Origin: Nitrospirota bacterium
GTDB lineage: Bacteria; Nitrospirota; Nitrospiria; SBBL01; SBBA01
Direction: 5' to 3'
NCBI GenBank assembly: GCA_038059935.1
Contig: JBBTIN010000005.1
Location: forward strand, 1 to 56,118
DNA: 56,118 nucleotides
The position numbers and the translations under genes are program-made. Below are positions 1,916-45,560 of the stretch, in pieces (within the stretch, counting starts at the first letter, position 1; each line of letters starts with the position of its first letter). The notes under the pieces are model-generated. The model was given only the letters and a program-made list of their open reading frames with translations, had not been told where the DNA came from and ran no database searches.

Positions 1916-2380
1916 TCAGATGCGGAGAACGGTGGTTTTGAGAATGGCAAGCGTAAGAGACCGAGGGAAATCCAAAGAGGAACGGGTTGGAGTAAAATCG
2001 GCGGGGATCATTGTGAATCGAATCGGGGCGGCTGTTGAATGGAAAAGGCGGTGGGCTATTTTAGAGACCTGCGTGGAGACAATTTGCGGCTTAAGTGGAG
2101 AGAGATGGAACGCATGATCGGCTGTGTCAGATGCTGCAGGAGAAGCATTGCCAAGTGCAAGGGGTACGACCCCTGCGAGGGTCGAATTGGCATGCGCATC
2201 GTGATGGCCGGGATGATGCAGAACCAAGTCGAGATGGTTCTGGTCATGAATCATGATAACTTGATGCGGGTGCAACAGGACAGCCAAAAAAGGAAGACCC
2301 AGCACGCTTCCGCAAAGAAAGGCAAAGAGAGACACCACGCTAATTGATTTTTGCAGCAGGGTTGTTTTTCTTTGCGACAT
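1916..2380 (-). CDS. His-rich membrane-anchored hypothetical protein upstream of czcC
   Basis: TM segment, then HPHQVIMIHDQNHLDLVLHHPGHHDAH, C-terminus LKTTVLRI. Start at 2380 or 2398. Confidence 0.6.
   Translation of the reverse strand: MSQRKTTLLQKSISVVSLFAFLCGSVLGLPFLAVLLHPHQVIMIHDQNHLDLVLHHPGHHDAHANSTLAGVVPLALGNASPAASDTADHAFHLSPLKPQIVSTQVSKIAHRLFHSTAAPIRFTMIPADFTPTRSSLDFPRSLTLAILKTTVLRI
2161..2179 (+). repeat. RCG-loop micro-hairpin, in-frame within the His-rich ORF
   Basis: GGGGT-ACG-ACCCC-TGCGAG; encodes LAGVVP on the minus strand. Confidence 0.7.
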
Positions 2381-2479
2381 AATAAAATTCCAGATCAACC
2401 CCTTATGGATGGGTCATCCTCTGCCAAAAACAGGAGTGATGTCAAGAAACGCATTGGCCATATCCATGACATTCAAAAC

Positions 2480-2848
2480 TCATCGGGAGAAATGATCCTC
2501 CAGATTTTCGTTCAACGTAAAAATAATCATTCGTTCCCCTGTCTTCGTGCTGATATCGGTATGGAGGCTAATCACCTTGAGGCCGGTGACATTCTCAATC
2601 GCTTCTTTGATCAACGCTTTGCCCTGCTCTAACAAATTGGAACGTATCTTTTTAATCAGGCTAATTCCCTCCGAATTTTTGGCCAGTTGTTGCTCTGCCG
2701 GAGTCAGCACCCCTTTCAGCCGAACCAAAACCATATCTTCAATGACGAATGCCTTTGTTTCTTGTGGGCCTCGGCCCATGTAATCCTTTTCAAACTGGAT
2801 TAAGGCATTACTGATCTCTGCCTCTATTTGCCCTTTTGTTCTTCTCAT
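2480..2848 (-). CDS. DUF2294 / MpsC-family protein
   Basis: TKGQIEAEISNALIQFEKDYMGRGP...LKGVLTPAEQQL...ISLHTDISTKTGERMIIF matches the DUF2294 signature. Confidence 0.85.
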   Translation of the reverse strand: MRRTKGQIEAEISNALIQFEKDYMGRGPQETKAFVIEDMVLVRLKGVLTPAEQQLAKNSEGISLIKKIRSNLLEQGKALIKEAIENVTGLKVISLHTDISTKTGERMIIFTLNENLEDHFSR

Positions 2849-2858
2849 TGAATTGTCC

Positions 2859-3701
2859 TTAAGATGGAAATGCCGCACGGATCACAATCCGCATCTTTTG
2901 AATCCACGAAAGTCGAATGGAACGATCTAAAACGTCAAACGGTTTCTCATCAATTCGATCCATCAACGCAATATAGACCTGACGCATCAGCGAAAGCGCG
3001 AACCGCGCATCAGCATCCACAAGCGAAATCAACGCGGCCGATTTTTCAAAAAGCGCACGGATACGATCCGACTGAAATCGAACCAATTTCAAAAAGGCGT
3101 CATTTTTCGTTTTTGATAAAAGCGCCGCTTCGGAATAACCACATGCCGCTATTTCGTCTAGTGGCAGATAGATACGACCGCGATTCAAATCCTCTCCAAC
3201 GTCGCGGAGAATATTGGTGAGTTGCAACGCGGTAGAAAGCGCCTGTCCATATTCATAAGCCAATGGATCGTGAAATCCAAAGACCGGCAACGAGAGGTCG
3301 GAAATGGTGGTCGCCACTTTATCACAATAAACCAACAGCGCATCATAAGTGGGATAGCGGTTGATTGTGCAATCCATCTTACATCCGGCAATGAGTCCCA
3401 AAAAACCTTCAATCGGAATCGGATATTTTTTGATCGCATCAGAAAGCGCAATGCCAATCGGATGAGAAGGCGTTTGCTGGTAACAACGCACCAACTCTTC
3501 TTCCCATTCTTTTAAGAGGAGATCAATCGGTTTGACTTGATGCTCATCTACAATATCATCGGCATAGCGGCAAAAGGCATAGACTGCAAAAATCGCTTTT
3601 CGCTTTGAAGGCGGCAAAAACCGAAACCCAACAGAAAAATGAGGCCCCTGTTGATTCGTTATATTCTGACAGTAGCGGTATGCGCCTTCCACACTGATCA
3701 T
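2859..3701 (-). CDS. Phytoene/squalene synthase family protein (CrtB/HpnD-like)
   Basis: YAFCRYADDIVD, YCDKVA, LQLTNILRDVGEDLNRGRIYLP motifs. ATG at 3701 overlaps the upstream stop (ATGA). Confidence 0.88.
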   Translation of the reverse strand: MISVEGAYRYCQNITNQQGPHFSVGFRFLPPSKRKAIFAVYAFCRYADDIVDEHQVKPIDLLLKEWEEELVRCYQQTPSHPIGIALSDAIKKYPIPIEGFLGLIAGCKMDCTINRYPTYDALLVYCDKVATTISDLSLPVFGFHDPLAYEYGQALSTALQLTNILRDVGEDLNRGRIYLPLDEIAACGYSEAALLSKTKNDAFLKLVRFQSDRIRALFEKSAALISLVDADARFALSLMRQVYIALMDRIDEKPFDVLDRSIRLSWIQKMRIVIRAAFPS

Positions 3702-4843
3702 TTTGTGCCCCGACGCGCCGCCCGATCTCGGCACCAGTGTTCCAAAAACGGATGCGTACAAGTGTGAGACGTTTCTTTTCGCCAAAGTTGTTTTACAATC
3801 GGAAAGAGCGCGCTCTTCCAAAAAGAGGGGGCATGCCACTTCGCCAAATAGGCTTTGAAATCGCGTCCCTCCGCCTGACGAACAAAATGAGACAGTCCGG
3901 CATTCCCGCCCGATTCGTAAAGTGCTCGATTCACCAAACTCACCTCCTGCGCATTTCCAAACGCTTCTTTCCAAAGCCTGTCGTAATTTTCAGATGAGAT
4001 AAAACTTTGTGCCGCAAAATGGCCGGTCATGATGGCATAGCGCAGTCCCAATCCAAAAAGATAATCTTGAAATCCGCCGGCTTCTCCGACATACAGTTTC
4101 TGATCATGAATTGCCGATTGTTTTAGACTAAAATCCATAAAGGAATAACCGGTCTTTTTGCTTTGAATGGTAAAGGGGGTAATCTCTAAAAACCGCGCAA
4201 GTGCAGCGTCAAAATACCGGTTTATCTGGGGAAGATCGCGCGTGATGGCGCATCCCAAGGTCGCCTCGCCTTCGTGCACAAAAAGATAGGCGTAGCCTCC
4301 GGGGGAAATCGTTTTATCAAACAAAACCCAAACGATATTGGGATGATCCGTTAAAAAACACATCTCTTTCGCAAGGCCGTCCGCACGGGTGGGGCCGGTT
4401 GCGACAATGTCCACGTCATGCGCGGTCACCCTTTGCCCATAATAAACCATGACGTCCGCTGCAAGTGCCTGATCGAGTAGGCCCTGATCTAAACTAATCT
4501 TATCGTCTTTTTTATGGCTGGTTCCCCGTTTAATCAAGTAGCAAAAGGGGGTTTCACTGCGAACTGTTTTAGAAACGAGCCGATGATCAAATAGGGTCGC
4601 CTCACGAACGCCGGAAACGAAGAAGTTCGTGGCAATCCCAATCTTGTTGAGCATTTCCAGAAAATCCGTTGCCCCGCTGCCGTTTTCCAGCACTTGGAAA
4701 TCGCCAATAAATCGAGCGCCAACGGCCTCGCGTGCATCGAAGACTTCGACGTTATATCCTGCTTTTGCGAGACCAATCGCCGCGGTCAGTCCCGACGGCC
4801 CTGCCCCTGCAATCTTGATTTTTTTTGTTTGTGTTCTTTCCAT
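3698..4843 (-). CDS. FAD/NAD(P)-dependent oxidoreductase, geranylgeranyl-reductase-like
   Basis: IAGAGPSGLTAA Rossmann motif, PGGYAYLF, YVGEAGGFQD. Confidence 0.8.
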   Translation of the reverse strand: MERTQTKKIKIAGAGPSGLTAAIGLAKAGYNVEVFDAREAVGARFIGDFQVLENGSGATDFLEMLNKIGIATNFFVSGVREATLFDHRLVSKTVRSETPFCYLIKRGTSHKKDDKISLDQGLLDQALAADVMVYYGQRVTAHDVDIVATGPTRADGLAKEMCFLTDHPNIVWVLFDKTISPGGYAYLFVHEGEATLGCAITRDLPQINRYFDAALARFLEITPFTIQSKKTGYSFMDFSLKQSAIHDQKLYVGEAGGFQDYLFGLGLRYAIMTGHFAAQSFISSENYDRLWKEAFGNAQEVSLVNRALYESGGNAGLSHFVRQAEGRDFKAYLAKWHAPSFWKSALFPIVKQLWRKETSHTCTHPFLEHWCRDRAARRGTK

Positions 4844-4989
4844 CCGCTTCTCACAATTTGGCATGATTCTAGCCGAAATCCAAAAATAAAACACTGTACT
4901 AGAAAAGAACCAACTTTGTTGACAGATTTTTTTGATTTATGTTACTTATTTTATAGGTATTTTCTTAAAAAATTAGAGAGGATGTTGTC

Positions 4990-5448
4990 ATGGATATTAG
5001 ACAAGGCATTGCCATCTACGTCAAAAAAGAAATTCGATCGGGTCGTGCTGATGAGAAAGAAACCGCTCCGTCTGCCGTTACGTTTCAAATTGGTGGCCAA
5101 CTGATTCGCATTGCGATTGGGTCTACTCCGATCATCGATCACGGCGATAAAATTATTGTTGCGGGCAAGATAGATAAAAAAGAGGTCTTGCATGTTTATG
5201 CCTACAAGAATCTGACCAAAATTGTTGAGGGTTCTGCCGGCTGGGAAACGCGCTTTGCACTTTCTGCGATTGCTTTGCTGCCGTCGCTATTTTTTAACGA
5301 CCTGCTATTGGCCTTCATCGCAGGTAGTTTGTATTTCTTTTTTCACGGCGTCAATGTCGTCAATGCAATTGAGCGCGTTCGATCAGAAATCTGGAGCGGT
5401 CCAATCGAGCAAACCACCGTGGATCAAACCGCAGAACAATCCGCTTAA
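4990..5448 (+). CDS. Hypothetical protein with small beta domain and two C-terminal TM helices
   Basis: 152-aa ORF with an AGGA RBS-like sequence and an upstream TTGACA at 4919. Confidence 0.6.
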   Translation: MDIRQGIAIYVKKEIRSGRADEKETAPSAVTFQIGGQLIRIAIGSTPIIDHGDKIIVAGKIDKKEVLHVYAYKNLTKIVEGSAGWETRFALSAIALLPSLFFNDLLLAFIAGSLYFFFHGVNVVNAIERVRSEIWSGPIEQTTVDQTAEQSA

Positions 5449-5453
5449 GGGAT

Positions 5454-5479
5454 AGAGAAAGAACCTTTTCGTTCAGACA
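5454..5479. repeat. Solo right end of the TAGTGTCTGAAC MITE family
   Basis: AGAGAAAGAACCTTTTCGTTCAGACA is identical over 26 bp to 46360-46385. Confidence 0.75.
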
Positions 5480-5480
5480 T

Positions 5481-5593
5481 TCATTAGGATATCACCTGTA
5501 CCAAGACCCGTATCCCCGCTTCGACATCACCCGATTCTTCTTCAATGACAATCAAGCCGTTTGCCTGGGTCAAAGACACTAGGTTTGCGGAGT
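5481..5593 (-). pseudogene. Detached duplicate of the moeA 3' end
   Basis: Translates SANLVSLTQANGLIVIEEESGDVEAGIRVLVQVIS then two stops. 5491-5593 aligns ungapped to 6848-6950 with 15 mismatches in 103 bp (manual count). Confidence 0.85.
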
Positions 5594-5599
5594 ATCTAA

Positions 5600-6790
5600 A
5601 TGGATTCAAAAGTATCTGAAAGGACTCGTTTTGTATCTGATACACAATTTCAAAATAAAGTCATTTTCTTTTTTCCTTGTTTACTTTATAAAGTCAATGC
5701 TGAATTATTCGATCAATTAGACTTTGATGATGACAATATTTTCCTTGAACCGCTCCTCTTTGCTTACTTTACTGACCCTCACCCCGTGATTCAGCTTGAG
5801 CAAATTCTCTTTGGTTATATCCCCGAGGAGACCCGTCCAAAAATGATCCACGTCTATGCCAATTCGGATGGAATTGTTGAACTCCCAATCGTTGGGTCCC
5901 TTCATACAAGCATTCATAATGCAACGCTTCGTCTGGTTTGGAGAAACGGTTTCGGAAACTGTGTATTAGAGAATGCTGAGGGTTCAAGTGTCACGATACA
6001 TAGCCGTAGTCAACCCGTTTTTGCAGAAGGAACATCGATCGAGATTTGTCGCTATAATCACCCTTTGTTGGAGCGGTTTTTTGTCAATGATGCTGGACAA
6101 CGGGTTGACGTTGACATTGAAAATATCACGCGTCTGCATTTCAGTCATATCAGCTGTGCACTTGACTTGATTAAAGGATTTTTGCCCGATTATTATAAAA
6201 GCATTCTAGCAGTGACTAGAAGAATTATGGTCTATAGTGGCAAGCGTCCATTTTCATTTGCAACGGTTTCAGCACACGGGATTGTATTTTTGAATGCCTC
6301 CAAAGAGGATAACCAATTATTCTTCTTAGAGGACATCATCCATCAATGCGGCCACATTATCTTCAGTGCCATGACTATTGATCCCCAGAAAATTATTAAA
6401 ATTCAGAGCCATACACCTCTCAATCATTTGAATGGCGATAAACGTGATGGTCGTGACATTTATACGACACTCCATGGTGTATTTACCGAGGCTTGGATGA
6501 ATTTATGTCTAGATCGGGGCTGCGATAGTAAACAATTTCCTCTGTTTCAAAGGCACGAATTATTTGGCCGTTTTGCACTGATCTTCACGCGGTTTGGGTG
6601 CGATCTCAAAAGCTTGATGGTGAGTGGCCTCTTCACTGAGCAAGGACAGCAGTTGTTCAATTGTCTTACGAATATCTATCAGGATATTGTCAGCAGAAGG
6701 TATAACCAACTTTCACAAATTAAGATATCGAATCAAAAATATTGCTTTAGCCGTGCAGATTTTTTACGACTGAACCCTCTTGATCAATAG
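5600..6790 (+). CDS. HExxH-motif-like protein (HQCGH variant), possible aKG-HExxH peptide-modifying enzyme
   Basis: SFATVSAHGIVFLN...LEDIIHQCGH...RDIYTTLHGVF spacing resembles aKG-HExxH family motifs; visibly AT-richer than flanking genes. Confidence 0.55.
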   Translation: MDSKVSERTRFVSDTQFQNKVIFFFPCLLYKVNAELFDQLDFDDDNIFLEPLLFAYFTDPHPVIQLEQILFGYIPEETRPKMIHVYANSDGIVELPIVGSLHTSIHNATLRLVWRNGFGNCVLENAEGSSVTIHSRSQPVFAEGTSIEICRYNHPLLERFFVNDAGQRVDVDIENITRLHFSHISCALDLIKGFLPDYYKSILAVTRRIMVYSGKRPFSFATVSAHGIVFLNASKEDNQLFFLEDIIHQCGHIIFSAMTIDPQKIIKIQSHTPLNHLNGDKRDGRDIYTTLHGVFTEAWMNLCLDRGCDSKQFPLFQRHELFGRFALIFTRFGCDLKSLMVSGLFTEQGQQLFNCLTNIYQDIVSRRYNQLSQIKISNQKYCFSRADFLRLNPLDQ

Positions 6791-6834
6791 AGTAAAACAG
6801 TGGAGGAACAAACACCAATGTCTAAACAGGACGA

Positions 6835-8052
6835 TCAAAATAAAGACATCACCTGCACCGACACCATTGCCCCCGCTTCGACATCACCTGATTGTGCTTC
6901 AATGACAATCAATCCGTTTGCTTGGGTCAAAGACACGAGATTTGCAGAGTCTTGATCCCCTGTTGGGGTCACTTGATATTCGCCATCTTGGAGGCTCAGC
7001 CTTCCCCGCACAAAATGGCATCGGCCTTCTTCTCGCAGGGGTCGTACCTCTTTCTCAATCGGTGCCATGAGTTTCGCTTGTACCACCGGAAGAAATAAAT
7101 CGTTGCGCCCTTGCGATGCGAGCAGCGCCGGACGCACAAACTGATCAAAGGTCACCATCGCGGAGACGGGATTCCCCGGAAGCCCAAACGCAATCTTTCC
7201 AGCAATGCGTCCAAACGCAAGTGGCTTCCCGGGCTTCATCGCCACCTTCCAAAATTTCATCGTGAGCACCTCTTTGACAATATCGTAATCGCCAACAGAA
7301 ACCCCACCCGATAACAAAATAAAGTCGGCCTCTTTGGCTTTTTCCAATTTGGAAGTGAGGTCGGCCAGATTATCTTTTGCAATCCCTAAAGAAAGAGGAC
7401 CCCCGCCCGCCTCGGTCACTTGGGCTGCCAATCCATATCCATTGCTATTATAAATCTGGTGCGGTTCTCGCTTCTGATGAATATCAACCAGTTCGTCCCC
7501 CGTAGATAAAATAGCGACGATTGGCCGTTTAGAAACAGAAACCGTCGTCACCCCAATCGCCGCCATCAGCGCAATTTCATAAGACCGAATGACAATCCCC
7601 GGTGAAAGCAGCAATGCTCCTTCACGAATCACGCCCCCACGCGGTCGAATAAACGCTCCAGCAGGAACGGGACGGGTCAACGTGATGGTCTGATCTGATC
7701 CGACTTTGATGTCCTCGATTTTGATGATGGCATCGGCTCCTTCTGGAATCGGCGCGCCGGTCATGACCTTGGATGTCGTTCCCTTCGTAACGGCTTTTGT
7801 CGGGATGACTCCAGCGCGAATGATTTCAATCACCGTTAGCGTGCAAGGATTATTTTCAAGTGCAAATTGGGACTCTTCTGATTGAATGGCGTAGCCGTCC
7901 ATGGCGGAGCGATCCCACGGCGGGTCGGCGATTTTTGAAACAATGGATTCGGCAAGAATCCGTCCTAGCGAAAGGGAAAGAGGGACACTCTCGTAGCCTA
8001 CTGGCGTGATTTCGGAGAGAATTGTTTTTTGGGCTTCAGCAACAGAAAGCAT
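6835..8052 (-). CDS. moeA: Molybdopterin molybdotransferase
   Basis: PPWDRSAMDGYA, MTGAPIPEGADA, STGDEL, SGGVSVGDYD, MKPGKP, GLPGNPVS. Confidence 0.95.
   Translation of the reverse strand: MLSVAEAQKTILSEITPVGYESVPLSLSLGRILAESIVSKIADPPWDRSAMDGYAIQSEESQFALENNPCTLTVIEIIRAGVIPTKAVTKGTTSKVMTGAPIPEGADAIIKIEDIKVGSDQTITLTRPVPAGAFIRPRGGVIREGALLLSPGIVIRSYEIALMAAIGVTTVSVSKRPIVAILSTGDELVDIHQKREPHQIYNSNGYGLAAQVTEAGGGPLSLGIAKDNLADLTSKLEKAKEADFILLSGGVSVGDYDIVKEVLTMKFWKVAMKPGKPLAFGRIAGKIAFGLPGNPVSAMVTFDQFVRPALLASQGRNDLFLPVVQAKLMAPIEKEVRPLREEGRCHFVRGRLSLQDGEYQVTPTGDQDSANLVSLTQANGLIVIEAQSGDVEAGAMVSVQVMSLF
7032..7050 (-). repeat. RCG-loop micro-hairpin, in-frame within moeA
   Basis: Minus strand GAGGT-ACG-ACCCC-TGCGAG; encodes VRPLRE. 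Confidence 0.65.
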
Positions 8053-8079
8053 AAACGGCTTTATATTAAATAATTCAAA

Positions 8080-8105
8080 GGGCAACCACGAGGGATTGCC
8101 CCTAC
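8080..8105. repeat. GTAG-type REP
   Basis: GGGCAACCACGAGGGATTGCCC-CTAC. Confidence 0.7.
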
Positions 8106-8143
8106 AATATTACACAATGCAACAATGTAACGGGTTATCCTAA

Positions 8144-8181
8144 TCGCGACCAACGGGAGCGACAATCTGCGCCCTCCGCGC
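8144..8181 (+). repeat. Stop-abutting GACCAACGGGA hairpin element
   Basis: TCGC-GACCAACGGGA-GCGA directly downstream of the folE stop. Confidence 0.75.
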
Positions 8182-8736
8182 CTAGGAGAGGAGGTTGAGG
8201 AATTCCGCGCGGGTTTTGGAGTCGGTTCTAAAGGAGCCCAGCATTGTGGAGGTAATCATCTCTCCGTTTTGTTTTTCCACACCGCGCATCATCATGCAAA
8301 GATGTTTTGCCTCGATCACCACGCCCACCCCATAGGGCGCGATTTTTTCCATAATGGCCTCGGCGATTTGACTGGTCAATTGTTCTTGAATCTGCAGACG
8401 TCGGCAGAAAACTTCGACCAACCGAGGCAGTTTGGAAAGCCCCACCACCTTTTTTTTAGGCAAATAGCCAATATGACATTTTCCAAAAAAAGGCAAAAGG
8501 TGATGCTCGCACATGGAGTAAAAATCAATGTTTCTGACAATCACCATCTCTTCATGGGGCGCGTCAAAAAAAGCGTTGTTCAAAACGGTATCTATATCTT
8601 GATGATATCCCTGTGTGAGAAATTGCAAAGACCGCTCCACGCGATCGGGTGTTCCTAAAAGCCCTTCGCGCGTGGGGTCTTCTCCGATTGCAACAAGCAG
8701 TTTGTGAACGATGTCTTTTATAGATTGATTTTTCAT
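8182..8736 (-). CDS. folE: GTP cyclohydrolase I
   Basis: [50 protein letters not shown]. Confidence 0.96.
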
Positions 8737-8765
8737 TTTAATGTGCGTTCCATTTTGTATTTATT

Positions 8766-8794: not shown

Positions 8795-9927
8795 GCAATC
8801 TCCAGAAATTTTGGATAGGTTGTCAGATTGGTACAACCATTTTCTTCAACGAGCACCATATCTTCAATCCGAACGCCGCCGATATCCGGGTAATAAAGCC
8901 CCGGCTCCACGGTAACGACCTCTCCTTTTTTTAGAATACACTCCCGCAAACTAATGCCCGGCGATTCATGAATATCAAGGCCGACGCCATGTCCCGTTCC
9001 ATGGAAAAATCCTTGCATGCGGCCATCCACGCGGCCTGTCTTATATCCGTTCACCTCAAAAAGCGCAACAATTTCTTCGTGGATCATCTTGCTGTTGACT
9101 CCCGCTTTTACGCGCGAAATCCCAAACTCCTGCCCTTCTAAAACCGTATCATACATTTTTTTGAGACGATCCGATGCAACCCCTTTAACGACCGTTCGGC
9201 TCATATCGGCGAAGTAGCGCGTCTCAATCGAGCGGGGAAAGATATCAAAGACAATGGCCTCATTGGCGCGAAGTGGCCCCTTGCCGATTTGGTGGGGATC
9301 GCAGGCATCGGCCCCGCAGGCAATAATTGAATGCTCGGCCAGACATCCTTTGCCCATCAGATTCAGATGGAGTCGTTGTCGCAGCGATTCGGATGTGAGC
9401 GACTGTCCCTCATGGCAAATAAAGCCGTCTTTAATTTCTGCGGCGCGGAGCAAGTCAAACAAATCGTCCACTGCTTCTTCTACTGCAATTTGTGTTTTCC
9501 GAATGGCCGCGACTTCTACGGTTGTTTTAATGGCGCGTTCTTCAAAAAAGGGTTCTCGTTTGATGGTGAGTTTATAGCCCAATGCGCGAAGGGCATCGCC
9601 GGATTCCAGCGGGAAATTGGCTGGGACCATCAGTTCGGAAATGGCGCGTTCTTTAAGGAGAACAGAAATCACGTCGGTTGCGGTTGGTCTTTCTTTCTGG
9701 GGTGCGACCCCTGCGAGTTGTTTGGCCTTTTCTTCGTAGTCGGAATAGGAAAGAACGTGATCCACTTTGGATTGCAATCGTGCGCGGTCTACTTCCAGAT
9801 CGCTCATCAGGAGGAAGGATTTCCCGTTTGATTTGAGGTAGATAAAGGAATCGGGCGCGAGGAATCCGCTGGCGTAATAAAGATTCGCGTTACTTTCGCT
9901 TGCAGCGATGATGAGAAAATTATTCAT
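8791..9927 (-). CDS. Xaa-Pro aminopeptidase (M24 family)
   Basis: DIFP, YFADMSRT, FHGTGHGVGLDIHE, TVEPGLYY, GVRIEDMV. The true start is most likely the ATG at 9927, overlapping the trxB stop. Confidence 0.92.
   Translation of the reverse strand: MNNFLIIAASESNANLYYASGFLAPDSFIYLKSNGKSFLLMSDLEVDRARLQSKVDHVLSYSDYEEKAKQLAGVAPQKERPTATDVISVLLKERAISELMVPANFPLESGDALRALGYKLTIKREPFFEERAIKTTVEVAAIRKTQIAVEEAVDDLFDLLRAAEIKDGFICHEGQSLTSESLRQRLHLNLMGKGCLAEHSIIACGADACDPHQIGKGPLRANEAIVFDIFPRSIETRYFADMSRTVVKGVASDRLKKMYDTVLEGQEFGISRVKAGVNSKMIHEEIVALFEVNGYKTGRVDGRMQGFFHGTGHGVGLDIHESPGISLRECILKKGEVVTVEPGLYYPDIGGVRIEDMVLVEENGCTNLTTYPKFLEIA
9699..9717 (+). repeat. RCG-loop micro-hairpin, in-frame within the M24 peptidase
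   Basis: GGGGT-GCG-ACCCC-TGCGAG; encodes LAGVAP on the minus strand. Confidence 0.7.
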
Positions 9928-10987: not shown

Positions 10988-11045
10988 TCACGACCAACGG
11001 GGCAGCGTGCCCTGCGGGGAGTGACAATCCGCCCTCCGCGAGAAG
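10988..11045 (+). repeat. Stop-abutting GACCAAC element carrying an 18-nt micro-hairpin insert
   Basis: TCAC-GACCAAC-[GGGGCAGCGTGCCCTGCG]-GGGA-GTGA; otherwise similar to the 8133-8180 copy. Confidence 0.75.
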
Positions 11046-15024: not shown

Positions 15025-15945
15025 TTAGAGCATTTTGGGCGAGGCCGGGGCCTGCGCCCGCTTAAACAAACCCGGCTGACCAAAATGATAGTCGTCTATG
15101 GAAAGTTGAATCGCCAACGTGTTTCCTTTTTCTTTAACACTGCCGCTTGACGGAACCTTGAAGAGTTCCAATAAACGCCGAGAAGTTTCCAATGAGGTCT
15201 CCAACTCTTTTTTAAGGGGCGCACGATATTGCAGATTCACGGGAATGGCCGTCGCCTGTGCGGCAATCTTTTTCTGTGGCCCCAGACGAAACACCCCCGA
15301 AAGCCGTTTAATTTGATCTGGCTCTTTAATCATTGGGATGATACTTCTTTGTTGATTCTCACGCATCAGAGCTGTTAAATCTCCCTTTGTATTATCAGCC
15401 CAAAAGCGAACCCCTGCGTTTTTCAAAAGACCATCCGATAAAAAGGCCTTGTTGGGGGTCACCCACTCGTCCGGGGTCTTGACCGTTTTTAAAAGATGGA
15501 TCAGCGCATCGGGGTTTCCAGACAGAAAAAGCCAATTGTCCCATTTTAAGTAGGCAGACAATTTCGCGTTCTGCGGGGCCGGATGATAAAAAACCGTTTT
15601 CCCTTTCGGCCCTTTCATCTGTTGAGGAACGCCACCCACCAAACCCGCAAGCAGCGCATTGATCGCTTTATCTTTCTGAAGATTTTTGACCTTAGCGACC
15701 ACCAGCGCCTCCCGCTCGCTTCTGGGCGTTACCATGTAAAAGACAGGTGGGAGCACCGATGCGATCGGGGTTCCTTGTACAGAAAATTGGATATACGACT
15801 CAACAAATTCTTTGACCCCCGGGACCGTGCGGTCAAATTGAAACGTAATTGCAAAAAGATTTGCGGGCACGAAAAAAGTAATGATCCCGGCCATCAGAAA
15901 TAAAGCGGAACGTCCGCTGCGGATGGAAAATTTAACAAAGCGCAT
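15025..15945 (-). CDS. Hypothetical exported protein
   Basis: 306 aa, signal-peptide-like N-terminus, GGAGG RBS. Confidence 0.7.
15905..15923 (+). repeat. RCG-loop micro-hairpin, in-frame within the signal peptide region
   Basis: GCGGA-ACG-TCCGC-TGCGGA; encodes RSGRSA on the minus strand. Confidence 0.7.
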
Positions 15946-20201: not shown

Positions 20202-20954
20202 ATGGAGATATTACAAAATAAAACACAAATAAAAAACGCGCGTTCTGAATTAGTTAGAAAAGGGGTTTCGGCTATTGACTCTCCAATCCGCGCTTTCATG
20301 CGTCGCCTAGGCCTCGTAGAGGGTGTTGGTGTCGGCGATTACATTAAAAGTTGGGATCTCCTTTCTAGTGTCACATTTCTTGAACAACATGTAAAAAAGA
20401 ATGAACCGATACTCGATATCGGTTGCTTTGCATCTGAAATACTGGGAGTACTGCATCAATTGGGATATCAGAAACTCTCCGGCGTAGATATGAATCCTGA
20501 TTTATCCAAAATGCCCTATTCAGACCAGATCCGGTATGAAATATCTGACTTTATGAAAACACCATTTCAAGAGGCCTCCTTCCGTGCGGTTACGGCCATT
20601 TCAGTCATTGAACATGGATTTTGCTCCGATGCGCTCTTAAAAGAGCTGTCACGATTACTCATGCCGGGTGGATTTTTTATTGCCTCCTTTGATTACTGGC
20701 CTGAGAAGATTGATACCAGCACAATAAAATTATTTGGAATGGATTGGAGAATCTTTTCTGAGAGAGACGTGAACGACTTTGTTCAGGAGGCTTCTGAATA
20801 TGGGTTCTTACCGGTTGGAAAGATAAACAATACCGCAGCAGATAAGGTCATTCATTGGGGTGGACAAAAATATACCTTTGGATGGTTAGTGCTTGAAAAA
20901 TCGGTGAGTGGAGCGTCCGCTGTGGGCGGAACAACGTCCACTGCGGAAAAATGA
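20202..20954 (+). CDS. Class I SAM-dependent methyltransferase
   Basis: ILDIGC motif I, AISVIEHG, LLMPGG. Confidence 0.85.
   Translation: MEILQNKTQIKNARSELVRKGVSAIDSPIRAFMRRLGLVEGVGVGDYIKSWDLLSSVTFLEQHVKKNEPILDIGCFASEILGVLHQLGYQKLSGVDMNPDLSKMPYSDQIRYEISDFMKTPFQEASFRAVTAISVIEHGFCSDALLKELSRLLMPGGFFIASFDYWPEKIDTSTIKLFGMDWRIFSERDVNDFVQEASEYGFLPVGKINNTAADKVIHWGGQKYTFGWLVLEKSVSGASAVGGTTSTAEK
20908..20947 (+). repeat. Two tandem degenerate RCG micro-hairpins forming the methyltransferase C-terminal tail
   Basis: GTGGA-GCG-TCCGC-TGTGG then GCGGA-ACAACG-TCCAC-TGCGGA. Confidence 0.6.
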
Positions 20955-27222: not shown

Positions 27223-27303
27223 GGGCCGCTCCTTCTTATTTTAATGACAGGGGGTACAACCCAGCCTCATACAAATATCAACATGAAGCGGATTTGTCTT
27301 TTC

Positions 27304-27351
27304 ACAGCGACCAACGGGAAGCTGTCACTCCTCGCTGGGGCACGCTGCCCC
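27304..27351 (+). repeat. Stop-abutting GACCAACGGGA element plus inverted micro-hairpin
   Basis: ACAGC-GACCAACGGGAA-GCTGT; minus strand GGGGCA-GCG-TGCCCC-AGCGAG directly after the thiolase stop. Confidence 0.75.
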
Positions 27352-35579: not shown

Positions 35580-36455
35580 CTAATAATTGAAAACAATTCC
35601 AGCTAAAATAATCGCTCCGATAAAGACATGCGCCTTAAAAAGAGAAAACAATCTTTCTCTTTCTGCGGAGCGTCCGCTGCGGAATGCACTCAAAAGCAAG
35701 ACGGTTTGATAGAGCAATCCAATCGCCGCGATCATCAGTGCCTCATAATAGGGCGCTCCCATTTTGGCTTGCTGTCCCACAAGATAAAGCAATAAGACGA
35801 CATTCAAAAAACAAAACCCGATTGCAATTGTGCTTTTTGATCCAAAAAAAATTGCCGTGGATTTCACCCCAATTTTCAGATCATCCTCTTTATCCATCAA
35901 CGCATAGATCGTATCATACCCAATCGTCCAAAAAAGATTTGCAATAAAAATCAGAATAGGAATGAGTGTAATCTCATTGAGAACGGCCGTCCATGCCATC
36001 AGAATGCCAAAACTAAAGGCAATGCCTAAAACGGCTTGCGGAAAATGAGTCAATCGTTTTGCAAATGGATAAAAAGAAGCCACGAAAAGCGCAATAAAAC
36101 TAAACAGAATGGTTCGCGTATTTAATAGTAAAACCAATAGGAATGAAACGGTCAAAAGCGGAATCAATACAAAGAACGCCTCTTTGTGGGTCAGCACACC
36201 ACTTGCTATCGGACGATCTTTTGTTCGAGCGACCTGTGCATCGAATTTATAATCGGTCATGTCGTTGATCACACAACCTGCGCTTCGCATGAAAAAAGAG
36301 CCCAGAATAAAGACCATTAAATGCGTAAGCGTCGGGCGCCCCGAAGCCGCAATAACGAGTGACCAAAGTGTCGGAAAGAGAAGCAGCAGCGTGCCGTAAG
36401 GCCGATCCAATCGCATCAGATGGATCAGCGCATTTCTTTTTTCAAGCGAGAACAT
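35580..36455 (-). CDS. ubiA: 4-hydroxybenzoate polyprenyltransferase
   Basis: RLDRPYGTLLL, MRSAGCVINDMTD, YPFAKR, YDTIYALMDKEDDLKIGVKSTA. Confidence 0.92.
   Translation of the reverse strand: MFSLEKRNALIHLMRLDRPYGTLLLLFPTLWSLVIAASGRPTLTHLMVFILGSFFMRSAGCVINDMTDYKFDAQVARTKDRPIASGVLTHKEAFFVLIPLLTVSFLLVLLLNTRTILFSFIALFVASFYPFAKRLTHFPQAVLGIAFSFGILMAWTAVLNEITLIPILIFIANLFWTIGYDTIYALMDKEDDLKIGVKSTAIFFGSKSTIAIGFCFLNVVLLLYLVGQQAKMGAPYYEALMIAAIGLLYQTVLLLSAFRSGRSAERERLFSLFKAHVFIGAIILAGIVFNY
35665..35683 (+). repeat. RCG-loop micro-hairpin, in-frame within ubiA
   Basis: GCGGA-GCG-TCCGC-TGCGGA; encodes RSGRSA. Confidence 0.7.
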
Positions 36456-36999
36456 CTTTTTTAATAACGCGATATCGCTCCGCTCCACAAAGCCGTGAAA
36501 CCAGTTCCAATGCAAATTCCATTGCAGTACCAGGGGCGCGGCTGGTGATAAATGGCCCATCAACGACAACGCGCTCTTCCTGATATTCGACCCCCGGCAT
36601 TTCTGATTGAACACACGGATGAGACGTTGCCTTTCGGCCAATCAATGCCTGCGCAATCAGAGACGGCGCGGCACAGATTGCGCCAATCCATATTCCTTCG
36701 CCGCGGACGTTCCGCTTTTTAATCGCATCATTGAGTATCTGCATCACCCGTTTGTCTTGACCCAGATGCGCCACGCCTTCGCCTCCGCCCGGGAGGACAA
36801 CCATATCAAACGTTTCGTTTTGCGCGTTATCAAGTGAGCAATCGGCCAGTAGGCGCACGCCGCGCGAACCGGTAATCGGCCCTTCGATGGTGCCTCCGAC
36901 CATCACTTCGACGCCTGCGCGGCGCAAGATGTCAATCACGGTAATGGTTTCGATCTCTTCAAACCCTGGGGCTAAAAATACAAGCACTTTCTTTTTCAT
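36442..36999 (-). CDS. yajL: DJ-1/ThiJ/YajL family protein
   Basis: GFEEIE, DILRRAG, LPGG, AICAAP, ITSRAPGTA. Confidence 0.88.
   Translation of the reverse strand: MKKKVLVFLAPGFEEIETITVIDILRRAGVEVMVGGTIEGPITGSRGVRLLADCSLDNAQNETFDMVVLPGGGEGVAHLGQDKRVMQILNDAIKKRNVRGEGIWIGAICAAPSLIAQALIGRKATSHPCVQSEMPGVEYQEERVVVDGPFITSRAPGTAMEFALELVSRLCGAERYRVIKKDVLA
36697..36715 (-). repeat. RCG-loop micro-hairpin, in-frame within the DJ-1 gene
   Basis: Minus strand GCGGA-ACG-TCCGC-GGCGAA; encodes RNVRGE just before the AICAAP strand. Confidence 0.65.
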
Positions 37000-37530: not shown

Positions 37531-39204
37531 CTATTTAATTGTTGCACCACTAAATATTTTTAACGCCTCTTTTACAAAAAGATTGTCCTGCTCCATTCCC
37601 GCAACCGGCACACGTTCCAAAATGGAAGCCCGCAAATCCAATTCCAAATCCCGCTTAAAATAATTTTTCAGAAGTGGCGCAAGCACTTTTTTATTCTCCT
37701 CCTTCTCAATTAGAGAGATTAAAAAAGAACTCTCTTCCGAAAATTGGAGTTGAATCGTTTTCTCTTCAACCTTTTGTAAAGCGCCTTGATCCAAATAAGA
37801 GGCGAGATTTGGCCGCGCCTTCTTGACCTCTTGTAAGAGTGCTTTCCATAAATCCGCGTCATTTTGTAGGGGCGAAAAACCTTTTGCCCCATCATTGGGC
37901 AGGGATGTCGTCGCAATTTCCGATGGACGTGGAGACAAAAAACTTTTCGTCTCGGATCGGGGAGGGGACAGCGTTGTTTGCACGGGTAGGGGCATGTTGC
38001 GTGTTGGTTTTGTGTAATCATGAGGCAGGGATGTTTCTTTGGGCGAAAAGTTTTTCGCCCCGACCACAGGGTTCGTCATCCCCTGAATCTCTGCGATGAC
38101 TTGTTCGATGGGTGTGAGATCGGCAATTAAAATCGCGCGCATCAGGGCGACTTCCAGCAACAGGTGGGGACGCGGCGCGTTTCGAATATCCTCTTGCAAT
38201 CTTATAAAAATCGAAAAGAAAGATTGTAATACTTCATGAGAGAAAAGCGCACTCTCCTTTTCAATCTCCCTTTTTTCTTCGTCGGGAAGATCAATCAGAT
38301 GATCCGCCGACTTCACATTTTTCATCACAATCAGATGCCTTAAATGCTCGATCCAATCCGTCAGAAATTGACGAAGATCGTATCCGTTGTTTTCGATTTC
38401 GCGCGCCAGAGAAAGCAGGGCTTCCGCATTTTTATCAGACATGGCGGCAATCAACGCATGAAAGGTGTTTTCCGCTGCGCGTCCAAAAAGAATCGAAATG
38501 TCTTCTTCCGACATGTGATCTTTGGCATAGGTCATGACCTGATCGAATAACGAAAGGGCATCGCGCAGGCTGCCTTCGGAGGCCTTTGTAATGAAGGTGA
38601 GAACATGGTCGGGCATCTCTTTATTTTCTTGCAATAAGATTTTTCTCAACTGGGTCTCAATTTCAACGCGCTTCACGCGGCGAAAGATCAGATGTTGGCA
38701 GCGGGAAAGAATGGTCGTCGGAATTTTATGCGCCTCTGTTGTGGCCAAAATAAAGACCAGATGCGACGGGGGCTCTTCCAACGTTTTAAGCAGCGCGTTA
38801 AACGCCGCATTGGAAAGCATGTGGACTTCGTCAATGATATAAACCTTGTATTTTCCGGAAAGCGGCAAATATTGAACCTTCTCCCGCAGGTGATGGACAT
38901 CTTCCACATGGGTGTTGGACGCGCCGTCTATTTCAATGACATCCACAGAGCGATTGGCAATAATCTCGCTGCAGGAGGAACAAGCATTACAAGGCGGATT
39001 TTCGGTGCTGGTGCAATTGATGGCTTTGGCGAGGATGCGCGCGACAGAGGTCTTGCCGACACCGCGTATGCCGGAGAAGAGATAGGCCTGTGCGGCCTTT
39101 TCTCCAGAGACGGCATTTTTTAGAATACGGATGAGGTGTTGCTGTCCGACAACTTCTTCAAAGGTTTTAGGACGCCATAGGCGCGCTGAGACTTGAAACT
39201 GCAC
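37531..39204 (-). CDS. dnaX: DNA polymerase III subunit tau/gamma
   Basis: RPKTF, GIRGVGKTS, zinc module, EIDGASN, IIDEVHML, LLKTLEEPP, SRC. Confidence 0.96.
   Translation of the reverse strand: MQFQVSARLWRPKTFEEVVGQQHLIRILKNAVSGEKAAQAYLFSGIRGVGKTSVARILAKAINCTSTENPPCNACSSCSEIIANRSVDVIEIDGASNTHVEDVHHLREKVQYLPLSGKYKVYIIDEVHMLSNAAFNALLKTLEEPPSHLVFILATTEAHKIPTTILSRCQHLIFRRVKRVEIETQLRKILLQENKEMPDHVLTFITKASEGSLRDALSLFDQVMTYAKDHMSEEDISILFGRAAENTFHALIAAMSDKNAEALLSLAREIENNGYDLRQFLTDWIEHLRHLIVMKNVKSADHLIDLPDEEKREIEKESALFSHEVLQSFFSIFIRLQEDIRNAPRPHLLLEVALMRAILIADLTPIEQVIAEIQGMTNPVVGAKNFSPKETSLPHDYTKPTRNMPLPVQTTLSPPRSETKSFLSPRPSEIATTSLPNDGAKGFSPLQNDADLWKALLQEVKKARPNLASYLDQGALQKVEEKTIQLQFSEESSFLISLIEKEENKKVLAPLLKNYFKRDLELDLRASILERVPVAGMEQDNLFVKEALKIFSGATIK
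37866..38064. repeat. Cluster of four REP-like units inside the dnaX coding sequence
   Basis: GTAGGGGCGAAAAACCTTTTGCCCC (37866), GTGGAGACAAAAAACTTTTCGTCTC (37929), GTAGGGGCATGTTGC (37986), GGGCGAAAAGTTTTTCGCCCCGAC (38041). Confidence 0.7.
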
Positions 39205-42751: not shown

Positions 42752-42963
42752 ATAGCGACCTCGACTTCTCTGATGGTTAGGTTCGGTTTTGTTTTAATCT
42801 CATTTAATTTTTCAAGTCCCTCAATGTAGCACACGATGGCTTCCCTTGCATTTTCAAGTGCTTCTTCCATCGTGTCCCCTTGCGTAAAACAGCCATCGAG
42901 TGCCGGAACAACCACGTTAAAGCCTCCCTCATCCGCTTTATCCAAAACGATATTAAACTTCAT
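42748..42963 (-). CDS. hicB: HicB-family antitoxin, short form
   Basis: [32 protein letters not shown]; GGAG RBS. Confidence 0.9.
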
Positions 42964-43029
42964 TTTCTCTCCTACTTTTATTTTGTTGTACAGACTCACC
43001 CTCTGACATAACAAAAAAGGATGTCTTTA

Positions 43030-43112
43030 TCGCGGCCAACGGGGCAAGCACCTTGCGAGGAGCAAGCATAGACTGCGAAAGCAGTCGTCCCGCAGGGGGG
43101 GTGCTACCCCCC
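43030..43112 (+). repeat. Composite stop-abutting element
   Basis: GGCCAAC-[GGGGCAAGCACCTTGCG]-AGGA, ATAGACTGCGAAAGCAGTCGT, and a G-rich hairpin spanning the reductase stop. Confidence 0.7.
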
Positions 43113-45560
43113 TTTCTCAATGACCAGTTCGTAATGACTATCGGGACGCCTTACCAACTCTAAAACTTTATGGCCCTCTGCTTTCACCGATCGGGGAACA
43201 TTATCTTTCGGCGCGCCATCATCAATAATCACCTCTAAAATTTCACCGGTCTCCATCTCTTCTAATTGCAGTTTTGTCTTTACAAAATTCATTGGACAAG
43301 CGACACCCGATAAGTCCAGTCGAACATCTACTTTCCTACCTGAAACATTAGAGACGGCGGACGCATTTGATTCCTGCGGCACTTTGTCCTCCTTCTTTCT
43401 CAATTTCATACTCGCGTCCATTTGGTCATACGCGGCTTTGCATTCGGCGATCACAAGACCGGCCAACGCAAGCGATGATAAAACGGCATCGGAAGAAACA
43501 TCAAACACCGTCCATTGTCCGAGACCTGCGGTCAGTTTTTCAAATTGCTCCGAGACAATGCCTTGCTCGACTAATTTATGTTGAAACTCTTTTAAGATTT
43601 CCCCTTCCAGTTGAGAATCAACCCCAAACGGAATCAACAACGCGCGGCAAGAAAGCAGGATCGCATTTTTCATTCGTTCAATAGCCGACTCCATGTTGCC
43701 ACGACGCACTTCCAATTGAGCCATTTCAAGCGACTGCGCACTGGTTCGAAGATAATTTTCAATGAGATCAATCACCGTTCCCGCACACTCGCCTGGCCCT
43801 AAATCATCTAAATGAAAATCGCTCTCGGCATTGTAATCATGGTAGGACGAAGGAGAGTCCGCGGGCAGCGGGAGCGCCGTCAACACGATCAGTTGATCCG
43901 AGATCACATCGGCCCCATAACGCTTTACAAACGGATTAAACAATTCTCCATCAAGACGATTTTCGCTATAGATTTGGACAATCTTTGTGACCGCTTGCGG
44001 AATATTTTTTGCAGGCAATTTAATTTTCGGCTTCCCCAGTGTCGGAGAATCGGCATTGACCCCGCCGCCTAAATGCAGTTGATAATGCGGTGCCAATTTT
44101 CCATGCACCTTTTTGGCCACACCGTGAAAACCAATCCCTGCAATATGATGATGCGCACAGGAGTTTGGACAGCCAGAGATACGAATACGAAGACCGCTAT
44201 CCGCGATTGCATCGGCTTCATTTTTCCCAAATTCATTCACAATCGCGTCGCCCAATCCCATTGAAGAAGTCAATGCCAACTGGCAAGTGTCGGCACCGGG
44301 ACAGGCAATCACATCAATGGCCCTTTGCGCGCCAGGATGGGCAAGGGAGATTTGTCGCAACGCTTCATAAAGACTCGGCAGCGATTCTTGCAAGATGCCA
44401 TGCAGAATAAAATTTTGCTGATGCGTCGCGCGAATCTCGTGAGGGACAGCGTGTCCTGCGGGCAGAAACCGATCTACAATATCGGCTAATCCTAAAAGTT
44501 CGGGCGCGGCAATATCTCCGAGCGTGAGTCTAATTTCAACCGATACCCGTTCTCCGGGCATAAAAAGAACATTGGTTCGCATCCATTTTTCATAGTCGGT
44601 CTCATCAGCTGATGCGATTCTTTTTTGCGCTGAATCGCTTGGTAATACAAAAAGAGGTTTTGTTGCAGGCTCCGGAAGATCGGGGTAGACGTTCCCCATC
44701 TCCTTTAAGAGCGCGATTTCTTTGGCGACCTCTGCCTTAAACTTTTCCAATCCCCATCGCTCCAGCACAAATTTCATTCGTGCCTTGCTACGGGTCTTTC
44801 GATCTCCATTGGCGTCAAATATTTTTAAGATGGCCTCACAGGTTGGCAATACCTCTGAAAACGGCAAAAACTCCGAATACAGTTTTGCAAGCTTTGGACT
44901 GGAACCCAAGCCGCCTCCCACATAAACCTTAAACCCGTACGCCACGCTTCCATCCGCAGGGGACGTTCCCCCTTTAGGACGACTCTCTGCGATAAAACCG
45001 ATGTCGTGAATGGCTGCCATTGCGCATTCGCTCTTGCATCCTGAAAAGGAGATTTTGAATTTTCGAGGTAAATCGGCATTGATCGGATTTCTCAAAAGAT
45101 GATAGGCCACCTTTTCCGAGATCGGCGCGACATTAAACGTTTCTGTATGACAAGCACCGGCCAGATGACAGGCCGTCACATTGCGAACTGTATTGCCGCA
45201 GGCCTCTCGTGTTGTCAGCCCCACTTCTGCAAGTCGCGTAAGGATGGTCGTAATATGATCCAATTTTACGAAATGAAATTGGATGTCCTGTCGGGTTGTG
45301 ACATGACATTTTCCGGTGGAGTATTTCGTGACAACATCGGCAAGGGTTCGTAGTTTTTCGGCGTTTAAGAATCCAGATGGAATCTTAACGCGAACCATCT
45401 GAACGCCCTTTTGCCGTTGGCCGTAGATGCCTTGCTGCAGTCGAAATTTCTTGAATTTCTCTTCTGGGATTTCTTTGTTTTGAAGTCGTTTAACCTCGCG
45501 GCCAAACGCTTCAATTTCTTTGAGGACTTCTTCTGGGATTGTAACCATAGGGGGCATCAT
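43104..45560 (-). CDS. Siroheme nitrite/sulfite reductase fused to a helical (HEPN-like) domain and a C-terminal TusA/SirA domain
   Basis: GIYGQR, TTRQDIQ, CGNTVRN, LPRKFK, ACPGADTC, SGCPNSC; C-terminal LDLSGVACPMNFVKTKL. Confidence 0.88.
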   Translation of the reverse strand: MMPPMVTIPEEVLKEIEAFGREVKRLQNKEIPEEKFKKFRLQQGIYGQRQKGVQMVRVKIPSGFLNAEKLRTLADVVTKYSTGKCHVTTRQDIQFHFVKLDHITTILTRLAEVGLTTREACGNTVRNVTACHLAGACHTETFNVAPISEKVAYHLLRNPINADLPRKFKISFSGCKSECAMAAIHDIGFIAESRPKGGTSPADGSVAYGFKVYVGGGLGSSPKLAKLYSEFLPFSEVLPTCEAILKIFDANGDRKTRSKARMKFVLERWGLEKFKAEVAKEIALLKEMGNVYPDLPEPATKPLFVLPSDSAQKRIASADETDYEKWMRTNVLFMPGERVSVEIRLTLGDIAAPELLGLADIVDRFLPAGHAVPHEIRATHQQNFILHGILQESLPSLYEALRQISLAHPGAQRAIDVIACPGADTCQLALTSSMGLGDAIVNEFGKNEADAIADSGLRIRISGCPNSCAHHHIAGIGFHGVAKKVHGKLAPHYQLHLGGGVNADSPTLGKPKIKLPAKNIPQAVTKIVQIYSENRLDGELFNPFVKRYGADVISDQLIVLTALPLPADSPSSYHDYNAESDFHLDDLGPGECAGTVIDLIENYLRTSAQSLEMAQLEVRRGNMESAIERMKNAILLSCRALLIPFGVDSQLEGEILKEFQHKLVEQGIVSEQFEKLTAGLGQWTVFDVSSDAVLSSLALAGLVIAECKAAYDQMDASMKLRKKEDKVPQESNASAVSNVSGRKVDVRLDLSGVACPMNFVKTKLQLEEMETGEILEVIIDDGAPKDNVPRSVKAEGHKVLELVRRPDSHYELVIEKGG
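44444..44462 (+). repeat. RCG-loop micro-hairpin, in-frame within the reductase
   Basis: GGACA-GCG-TGTCC-TGCGGG; encodes PAGHAV. Confidence 0.7.
44953..44971 (-). repeat. RCG-loop micro-hairpin, in-frame within the reductase
   Basis: Minus strand GGGGA-ACG-TCCCC-TGCGGA; encodes GTSPAD. Confidence 0.7.

Follow-up and report, generated by a model that had tools for sequence, protein, structure and literature searches.

How can one short hairpin come to lie inside the coding sequences of many unrelated proteins? The question is raised by a 56,118-nt contig of a Nitrospirota draft genome (JBBTIN010000005.1, contig C5; "the window" below always means this whole stretch at its full length), in which an 18-nt GC-rich hairpin, hereafter the unit, recurs within and between genes. 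An initial annotation made from the letters alone had counted about 14 copies and read them as a mobile element of six codons. The host genome is a 1,364,001-bp draft in 63 contigs and 69% complete; its nearest named relatives belong to Candidatus Troglogloeales (Nitrospirota), homologues of its proteins are named Nitrospirota and Candidatus Manganitrophus, and the window DNA is present in public groundwater metagenome runs, with no RNA run among those listed. Our analysis indicates that the units very probably form a family that spreads at the DNA level by precise whole-unit insertion, because orthologues show exact gaps at the occupied sites, reciprocal cases occur in relatives, all frames and orientations are used, there is no target duplication and the units prefer to lie next to RNNG.

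Each unit is built from two complementary strands that form a 5-bp stem around an RCG loop, followed by a TGCGR tail. Within the window, the loose pattern RCGN5TGCGRR matched 13 times against an expectation of 4.72, and none of 100 shuffles reached 13. With the hairpin required and at most one mismatch allowed, nine units were found, which are those listed below other than the degenerate pair at 20908..20946. The earlier count of about 14 thus includes nine good units, but the remainder are degenerate copies or related modules. The units of the window, by coordinates and strand, are as follows (element B is a separate repeat described further below).

2161..2178 (+): perfect unit, GGGGT-ACG-ACCCC-TGCGA, in an unsupported open reading frame (ORF) at 1916-2398, for which neither Pfam nor the fetched loci gave a match or an orthologue.
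7033..7050 (-): unit in the MoeA gene 6835-8085 (minus), with a single mismatch in its stem; it adds EVRPLR to the protein.
9699..9716 (+): perfect unit lying antisense in the minus-strand gene 8791-10065 for the M24 peptidase, to which it adds LAGVAP.
11000..11017 (+): perfect unit that interrupts an element B copy within its loop, in the order CAACG, unit, GGAG.
15905..15922 (+): perfect unit placed right at the 5' end of the minus-strand ORF 15025-15945.
20908..20946 (+): a tandem pair of degenerate units, the first of 18 nt and the second of 21 nt with 3 extra loop bases.
35665..35682 (+): perfect unit (given as GCGGA-GCG-TCCGC in the initial annotation), antisense to the UbiA gene 35580-36641 (minus), to which it adds 6 residues.
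36698..36715 (-): one-mismatch unit with the tail GGCGA in the DJ-1/PfpI gene 36442-36999 (minus), to which it adds 6 residues.
44444..44461 (+): perfect unit, GGACA-GCG-TGTCC, lying antisense in the minus-strand gene 43104-45560 for the sulfite reductase-TusA protein, to which it adds 6 residues.
44954..44971 (-): perfect unit, GGGGA-ACG-TCCCC, sense in the same sulfite reductase-TusA gene 43104-45560, to which it adds GTSPAD.

Across the host genome we found 108 perfect and 69 one-mismatch 18-mers, whereas five third-order Markov shuffles contained no perfect and 5 to 11 one-mismatch copies. Within predicted ORFs there were 82 perfect units against 0 or 1 in five codon-order shuffles, the comparison by which the initial annotation had suggested its motif be checked. 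Removal of overlaps left a genome-wide set of 173 copies (107 perfect and 66 with one mismatch), on which the analyses below are based. When sites were picked by loop and tail only, 108, 35, 24, 81, 106 and 80 of them had 0, 1, 2, 3, 4 and 5 unpaired stem positions, respectively, a bimodal distribution; the shuffled background contained no site with 0 unpaired positions and peaked at 4. The hairpin is therefore no artefact of the search, as pairing appears at sites picked without any pairing requirement.

The stems of the perfect copies fall into families (GCGGA 38, GGGCA 25, GGGGT 22, GGGGA 13, GGACA 3, GTGGA 2, plus singletons), and at least six stem sequences keep perfect pairing around a fixed loop and tail, which bears out the covariation claimed at the outset. 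Of the perfect units, 47 have A and 61 have G as the loop purine, and at the tail purine 57 have A and 51 have G (TGCGA and TGCGG being the dominant tails after RCG hairpins); both variants at each of these positions occur inside every large stem family. Folding of the units as single-stranded DNA gave the expected hairpin at −4.1 to −4.9 kcal/mol. All 24 main unit variants are free of stop codons in all six frames, but this property alone is unremarkable because 68% of random hairpins of equal GC content are equally stop-free. Thirteen head-to-tail arrays with a period of exactly 18 nt were present (ten doublets and three triplets), of which 11 are built of identical or near-identical stems and two mix stem families.

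Whether the units are inserts in proteins was examined with codon alignments, built from the orthologous loci of five relatives within the genus and family (G001-G005; DNA identity about 65-85%). At all six testable internal sites of the window (MoeA, M24 peptidase, UbiA, DJ-1 and both sites in the sulfite reductase), orthologues lacked exactly 18 nt, or 6 codons. The unit in MoeA lies in the linker between the MoCF_biosynth and MoeA_C domains (by Pfam coordinates), and the exact 6-codon gap was seen in G001, G005 and two metagenome homologues; the window reads ATT GAG AAA [unit] GAA GAA GG, and the G001 orthologue has identical flanking codons and no unit. The M24 peptidase site is an exact 6-codon gap in G001, whose orthologue is 86% identical, and in G005, and the surrounding region is a variable linker in the remaining orthologues. 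In UbiA the unit is placed 27 codons ahead of the stop and is an exact 6-codon gap in G003 and G004. In DJ-1 it lies just upstream of the IGAICAAP motif, with an exact 6-residue gap in both relatives that cover the site (G004 and G005). The reductase site at 44444 is a 6-codon gap in G001, G003, G004 and G005, and the one at 44954 is a 6-codon gap in G001, G003 and G004; in G002 this second loop contains a longer insert that includes a unit. The six-residue gaps that the initial annotation had suggested looking for in MoeA, DJ-1, UbiA, the M24 peptidase and the reductase are thus present. None of the checkable internal units of the window was common to any relative fetched, and a metagenome scan with MoeA, in which the nearest sequence had 62% protein identity, gave no unit at any of 14 loci.

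The earlier claim of in-frame inserts in unrelated proteins holds for these six sites but not for two others. The unit at 2161..2178 is probably non-coding, because ORF 1916-2398 is unsupported. For ORF 15025-15945, orthologue alignments begin at residue 15, and since the unit at 15905..15922 lies upstream of this conserved part, it is likely, as far as the letters and alignments go, to sit in a 5' untranslated region or in intergenic DNA. The degenerate units at 20908 and 20926 form the last 13 codons of the methyltransferase ORF 20202-20954, for which no orthologue was found in G001-G005. This ORF ends in an ATGA overlap (20951-20954) with the next ORF, 20951-22036, directly past the two decayed units, which would therefore occupy a 3' extension that preserves translational coupling.

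For the reductase we aligned the window protein with 55 homologues (56 sequences in all; 42-73% identity). The GTSPAD columns were empty in 54 of the 55 homologues, the remaining one having an unrelated 4-residue insert. The columns of the 44444 insert were likewise empty in 54 of 55, and the exception, P0002, carries SQGSHPSQGTLP, which corresponds to two units in another frame. Both inserts are hence the derived state. In an AlphaFold2 (AF2) model of the reductase (mean predicted local distance difference test score, pLDDT, 86.6; predicted template modelling score, pTM, 0.80), GTSPAD is predicted to lie in the beta-hairpin loop that connects strand 183-191 to strand 202-210, and the 44444 insert in a loop that leads from helix 348-361 to strand 371-374. 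Blocks of 10 residues containing the inserts had a mean pLDDT of 65, compared with 88-96 in adjacent blocks.

The reverse situation was also found. The G003 orthologue of window ORF 28669-30375 carries SQGSYP at a point where the window protein lacks six residues. At a site in the dnaX-like gene 37531-39204, the window is empty, G002 has one unit of 6 codons (locus L037) and G003 has an 18-codon insert (L048); this site may be an insertion hot spot, or it may hold an old insertion that has since been expanded or lost. A DNA-level counterpart is provided by the two element B copies at 8148 and 10992, whose sole difference is one 18-nt unit between CAACG and GGAG, so the exact 18-nt insert reported earlier for the nested copy stands. 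Genome-wide, 14 units occupy the identical spot in the element B loop. Three characters of mobile DNA are seen here: orthologous sites either have or lack the whole unit, units nest within another repeat, and unrelated loci carry identical copies. The earlier core proposal of a six-codon unit that moves at the DNA level is upheld by these results, with both reductase inserts in predicted loops.

We compared the placement of the 173 units with random positions, using classes from our own crude codon-usage gene calling, which is conservative. Seventy-one units were internal to coding sequence, 24 lay within 40 codons of a stop, 39 were at the 5' end or upstream of a gene and 39 were intergenic, against 64%, 9%, 13% and 14% of random positions in the same classes. 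Relative to chance the units are depleted inside genes, yet they are very common there (at least 41% internal), and they are enriched at gene ends and between genes. Internal copies are spread over every pairing of orientation with codon phase, six in all (13, 16, 8, 7, 15 and 12) and run with transcription in 37 cases and against it in 34, and the units are accordingly conserved as nucleic acid and not as protein, as had been proposed. Coding sequence on both sides was found for 48 of 116 18-nt units versus 5 of 46 modules of 19, 20 or 22 nt that combine YCGCM with a GC-rich hairpin; for 21-nt modules, which are part of another repeat, the proportion was 2 of 20.

Insertion preference was examined in 111 solo units, a set from which nested copies, tandem copies and one-mismatch copies unlike the main stem families were left out. 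The next base was a purine in 99 of the 111, and RNNG followed in 70 of the 111 versus a genome background of 12.6%. The preference for RNNG was present in every location class, and typical flanks were ATTG, GTTG, ATGG, GATG and GAAG. Empty orthologous sites already hold this motif (GAAG in MoeA, AATG in the reductase and AAAG in UbiA), and RNNG is for this reason read as a target preference and not as a part of the element. On the opposite strand the order reads CNNY, YCGCA, hairpin. Neither the orthologue comparison nor the flanks showed any target duplication at unit insertion sites.

Taken together, these observations show inserts of exactly 18 nt without target duplication, solo copies directly 5' of RNNG, both orientations and every frame in use, and copies present singly or as head-to-tail arrays of period 18. 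As 18 nt equal six codons and the frames are free of stops, insertion into a gene adds six residues, and the copies that remain are those in loops, linkers and termini. The pattern probably reflects insertion followed by purifying selection, with no function at the protein level. Because loop and tail are conserved while the stems covary freely, the folded single strand is probably recognised by a structure-specific enzyme acting in trans. That this enzyme is of the HUH/Y1 type is our best guess, though we hold it to be less likely than not. A broader proposal, which we advance tentatively and would not yet favour over its negation, is that these 18 nt are by themselves all that a mobile substrate needs and might be the smallest unit of transposable DNA so far described, that an enzyme other than a classical RAYT (REP-associated Y1/HUH transposase, REP being repetitive extragenic palindrome) inserts them 5' of RNNG, that the unit acts as a genome-wide generator of six-residue loop insertions and that sister lineages have been hit independently in the same loops (reductase, dnaX and a Y1-like gene).

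Several results weigh against spread by insertion or against parts of it. Profile searches with PF01797 (Y1_Tnp), PF07282 (TnpB) and PF00078 (reverse transcriptase) gave no match in the host genome, although a Y1 gene missing from a metagenome-assembled genome (MAG) that is 69% complete is no proof of absence. Our gene caller scored two known-internal unit sites as 5' ends. Contigs from four runs aligned to window positions 1-20000 showed no 18-nt indel at five unit sites, but this says nothing about polymorphism because two of the runs contain the same strain and the other two fragments only. The nearest other genomes are about 70-80% identical in DNA. Current activity of the units is inferred from the excess of perfect copies rather than observed. 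Strict lagging-strand targeting of the IS200/IS605 kind would predict an orientation bias, and the units showed none relative to GC skew (Fisher p = 0.28) or to local gene strand (p = 1.0), which counts against the guessed enzyme and not against mobility.

The first alternative to be weighed, and the one offered by the initial annotation, is that a RAYT acting in trans moves the unit, which would be a GTAG-type REP of minimal size. Its hairpin does bear, on one side only, a conserved tag of 5 nt that stays unpaired, and the lack of target duplication together with the short CNNY flank on the tag side resembles insertion by IS200/IS605 elements 3' of a tetranucleotide. Y1_Tnp genes are moreover found in the unit-bearing genomes G001, G003, G004, G012 and G015. 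Nevertheless, the tag is YCGCA (TGCGR on the other strand) and neither GTAG nor CGTC, the tags described in PMC3733652, and no Y1 gene was found in the host genome (69% complete), in unit-bearing G002 (34 pattern matches, 86% complete) or in G005. Of 41 genomes, 28 have Y1 genes, and most genomes without units are among these 28, so the distribution of Y1 genes was rejected as a correlate of the units; homologues about 60% identical to a Y1 protein of G012 are present in unit-free G023, G031, G033, G037 and G039. None of eight Y1 loci from relatives has units flanking both sides, and one has a unit 1.6 kb away. Furthermore, the arrays are head-to-tail and not inverted REPIN/BIME pairs, at least 41% of the units are gene-internal, and orientation is unbiased. 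We consider this explanation improbable, and the proposed RAYT mobilisation is not supported. One Y1 transposase-like gene is itself a host of the unit: in L115 (G001:C45:191-481), from a relative of the same genus, an 18-nt unit lies in frame (SQGSHP) inside the conserved region, in an open frame that is short (120 aa).

Units might also multiply without any dedicated transposition, through host replication and repair (hairpin-promoted template switching, slippage, or gene conversion from donors such as element B modules). Slippage would fit the 11 of 13 arrays made of identical or near-identical neighbours, and element B, which contains unit-like modules, has its core within 90 nt of 26 of the 173 units. 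The other 147 units are not near one, however, and G012 and G015 are rich in units with only background counts of element B. Insert boundaries are exact to the base at unrelated loci, where RNNG is the only similarity between flanks, stem families are mixed in two arrays, and DNA between neighbouring units is unrelated, which makes this route very unlikely in our view. The last point comes from an all-against-all comparison of 53 neighbouring pairs 30-3000 nt apart, in which intervening DNA was unrelated save for one assembly duplicate and no repeated cargo was bounded; composite transposons bounded by units were rejected on the same result. Least probable of all is that selection, and not insertion, has built up the motif for a cell function, whether as a signal of the protein-binding or uptake type, as an RNA hairpin or as a hexapeptide of use to the cell. 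Perfect copies do exceed decayed ones (107 vs 66), and more copies lie at gene ends and between genes than random placement would give, but orthologues differ by whole-unit gaps and not by substitutions, the peptides vary with frame and strand, orientation is unbiased with respect to transcription, and relatives share none of the checkable internal insertions. Precise insertion of a DNA-level element remains the explanation that we prefer.

The units have a patchy distribution among related genomes, as counted with one pattern spanning three stem families. They are multi-copy in all six genomes of family f1 (9-73 pattern matches each), in G012 (family f2, genus g10; 59 matches) and in G015 (29 matches) and G011 of family f7. 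The single f6 genome had two matches, and the 24 genomes of families f4 and f5 had none. In a sample of 401 genomes of the phylum, nine had any match; outside the order there were at most two per genome, taken as chance hits, and most of these, among the matches listed, were non-hairpin.

Element B is a separate intergenic repeat with about 80 copies in the host genome. It has a variable, covarying stem around a conserved loop, GACCAACGGRA, with at least four of five pairs formed in 43 of 80 copies and several different stems, an optional hairpin GACTGC-GRA-GCAGTC, present in 27 of 90, and at its end at least one module that joins YCGCM to a GC hairpin (19-21 nt). The copies tend to be antisense to neighbouring genes, by 42 to 18. 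It is abundant only in family f1 (80 copies in the host genome, G000, 129 in G004, 24 in G005 and 21 in G001), and the unit-rich G012 and G015 have two cores each, which is background. Rfam searches of the whole window at gathering thresholds gave no match at unit or element B sites and returned only tRNAs and signal recognition particle (SRP) RNA; at E<=10, region 46380-46540 gave sub-threshold noise only. The copies in the window are these.

1876, 8148, 10992, 27309, 46434 and 53146 (+): element B cores, GACCAACG.
8142..8185 (+): element B copy without a nested unit, the empty-site reference for the 10992 copy.
27303..27351 (+): element B copy with stem, GACCAACGGRA loop, stem and a 20-nt terminal module TCGCT-GGGGCA-CGC-TGCCCC (the earlier "27331").
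43030..43104 (+): long-form element B with the core variant GGCCAACG, a decayed nested unit (the earlier 43041) and a middle hairpin GACTGC-GAAA-GCAGTC.
Within 43030..43104 (+): terminal module of this long form, CCGCA-GGGGGG-GTGCTA-CCCCCC (the earlier 43089).

Among the copies first described as intergenic, 11000 is therefore a perfect unit, but 27331, 43041 and 43089 are parts of element B.

Other short repeats were seen alongside. Positions 28559-28699 of the window hold a 141-nt repeat with the look of a MITE, of which G004 and G005 have dozens of copies 80-90% identical and G001 some. Positions 10933-10970 hold a 34-38-nt sequence with the hairpin CCTCCCCTTGAAGGGGAGG, found at 94-100% identity at many loci in G001-G005 and at very high contig depth in the source sample. 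Further short dispersed repeats common to relatives lie at 231-450, 1868-1920 and 46254-46388, the last of which matches copies in G004 and G005 at 84-86% identity that also match the region around 297-400. A different in-frame repeat occurs several times in L118 (G011:C40), a 1399-aa methylase-like ORF, as VEAASPPL-like and SGGDAAST-like peptides; by eye these look like both orientations of one longer GC hairpin, and the ORF also has a Y1_Tnp-like stretch.

If an 18-nt hairpin is sufficient for mobilisation, it would set a new lower bound for mobile elements and offer a tiny, defined substrate with which to find and characterise the enzyme. The units also amount to a natural experiment in protein tolerance, since the housekeeping enzymes of this 1.4-Mb genome contain some 70 or more insertions of six residues. 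The insert sites mark permissive positions in MoeA, DJ-1, UbiA, the sulfite reductase and DnaX, among others, and the same loops are hit repeatedly in sister species. For the annotation of groundwater Nitrospirota MAGs, the unit explains 6-aa indels and short repeats that could otherwise be mistaken for assembly errors.

How does the unit compare with known systems? IS200/IS605 elements have two different subterminal hairpins and insert 3' of a fixed tetra- or pentanucleotide without duplication. The unit resembles them in hairpin recognition, in the lack of target duplication and in a short specific flank, but differs in having a single hairpin, a degenerate flank and no strand bias, and TnpA and TnpB were not found in the host genome at its 69% completeness. 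The cyanobacterial small dispersed repeats (SDR) that Elhai et al. are said to have described in 2008 reportedly form hairpins of 21-27 nt, and their mobility, like that of the unit, was reportedly deduced from nested insertion in other repeats and a patchy distribution. Both they and the unit are very small, hairpin-forming dispersed repeats, but the unit is smaller still, at 18 nt, and lies in frame in many housekeeping genes. The Rickettsia palindromic element (RPE) RPE-1 measures roughly 100-150 bp. In-frame insertion is common to RPE-1 and the unit (all six testable sites), but the unit has 18 nt and an unrelated sequence, and the RPE host is an obligate intracellular alphaproteobacterium, unlike the host of the unit.

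REPs, as set out by Di Nocera et al. in 2013 (PMC3733652), resemble the unit: they are short hairpins rich in GC, one end of which bears a conserved tag that does not pair, and they have families of different stems, hundreds of copies and a lineage-specific distribution; families of CGTC REPs, again like the unit, have no associated transposase according to the same paper. They differ from the unit (18 nt, 5-bp stem, 3-nt loop) in size, since PMC3733652 gives REPs of 20-40 bp and CGTC stems of 8-9 bp, and in placement, since they are described there as mostly intergenic and arranged as inverted dimers, whereas at least 41% of the units are gene-internal and their arrays head-to-tail. With respect to GTAG REPs, the unit tag is TGCGR / YCGCA in all 108 perfect copies (by search definition), the RAYT flanked by repeats that marks a REPtron was not found (host genome 69% complete; 0 of 8 Y1 loci in relatives), and instead of extragenic, inverted pairs we found 71 of 173 units internal and 13 of 13 arrays head-to-tail. 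CGTC REPs, as defined in PMC3733652, have a CGTC, TGTC or CCTC tag, an A-T-initiated stem of 8-9 bp, a 4-5-nt loop and a CCA-like tail; the unit has a 5-bp stem starting with G, a 3-nt RCG loop and a TGCGR tail.

In-frame palindromic inserts as such are already known from several phyla in the form of RPEs and intragenic GTAG and CGTC REPs (PMC3733652). Intragenic REPs, of which some copies are contained entirely in ORFs, RPE-4 and RPE-6, the latter two being CGTC REPs, are described in that paper as in-frame inserts much smaller than RPE-1, and intragenic REP inserts are suggested there to be possibly neutral because they lie in flexible linkers or loops; genes with an in-frame RPE likely still encode functional proteins (PMC3733652 and PMC3184786). 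The statement that the unit is far smaller than the Rickettsia palindromic elements known to insert into ORFs is consequently right for RPE-1, but in-frame palindromic inserts much smaller than RPE-1 had been published (PMC3733652). Literal word searches of open-access full text returned no description of the 18-nt unit or of such repeats in Troglogloeales. In-frame palindromic repeats being known, the unit is nonetheless new: it is smaller than GTAG REPs, CGTC REPs and RPE-1, and unusually gene-invasive.

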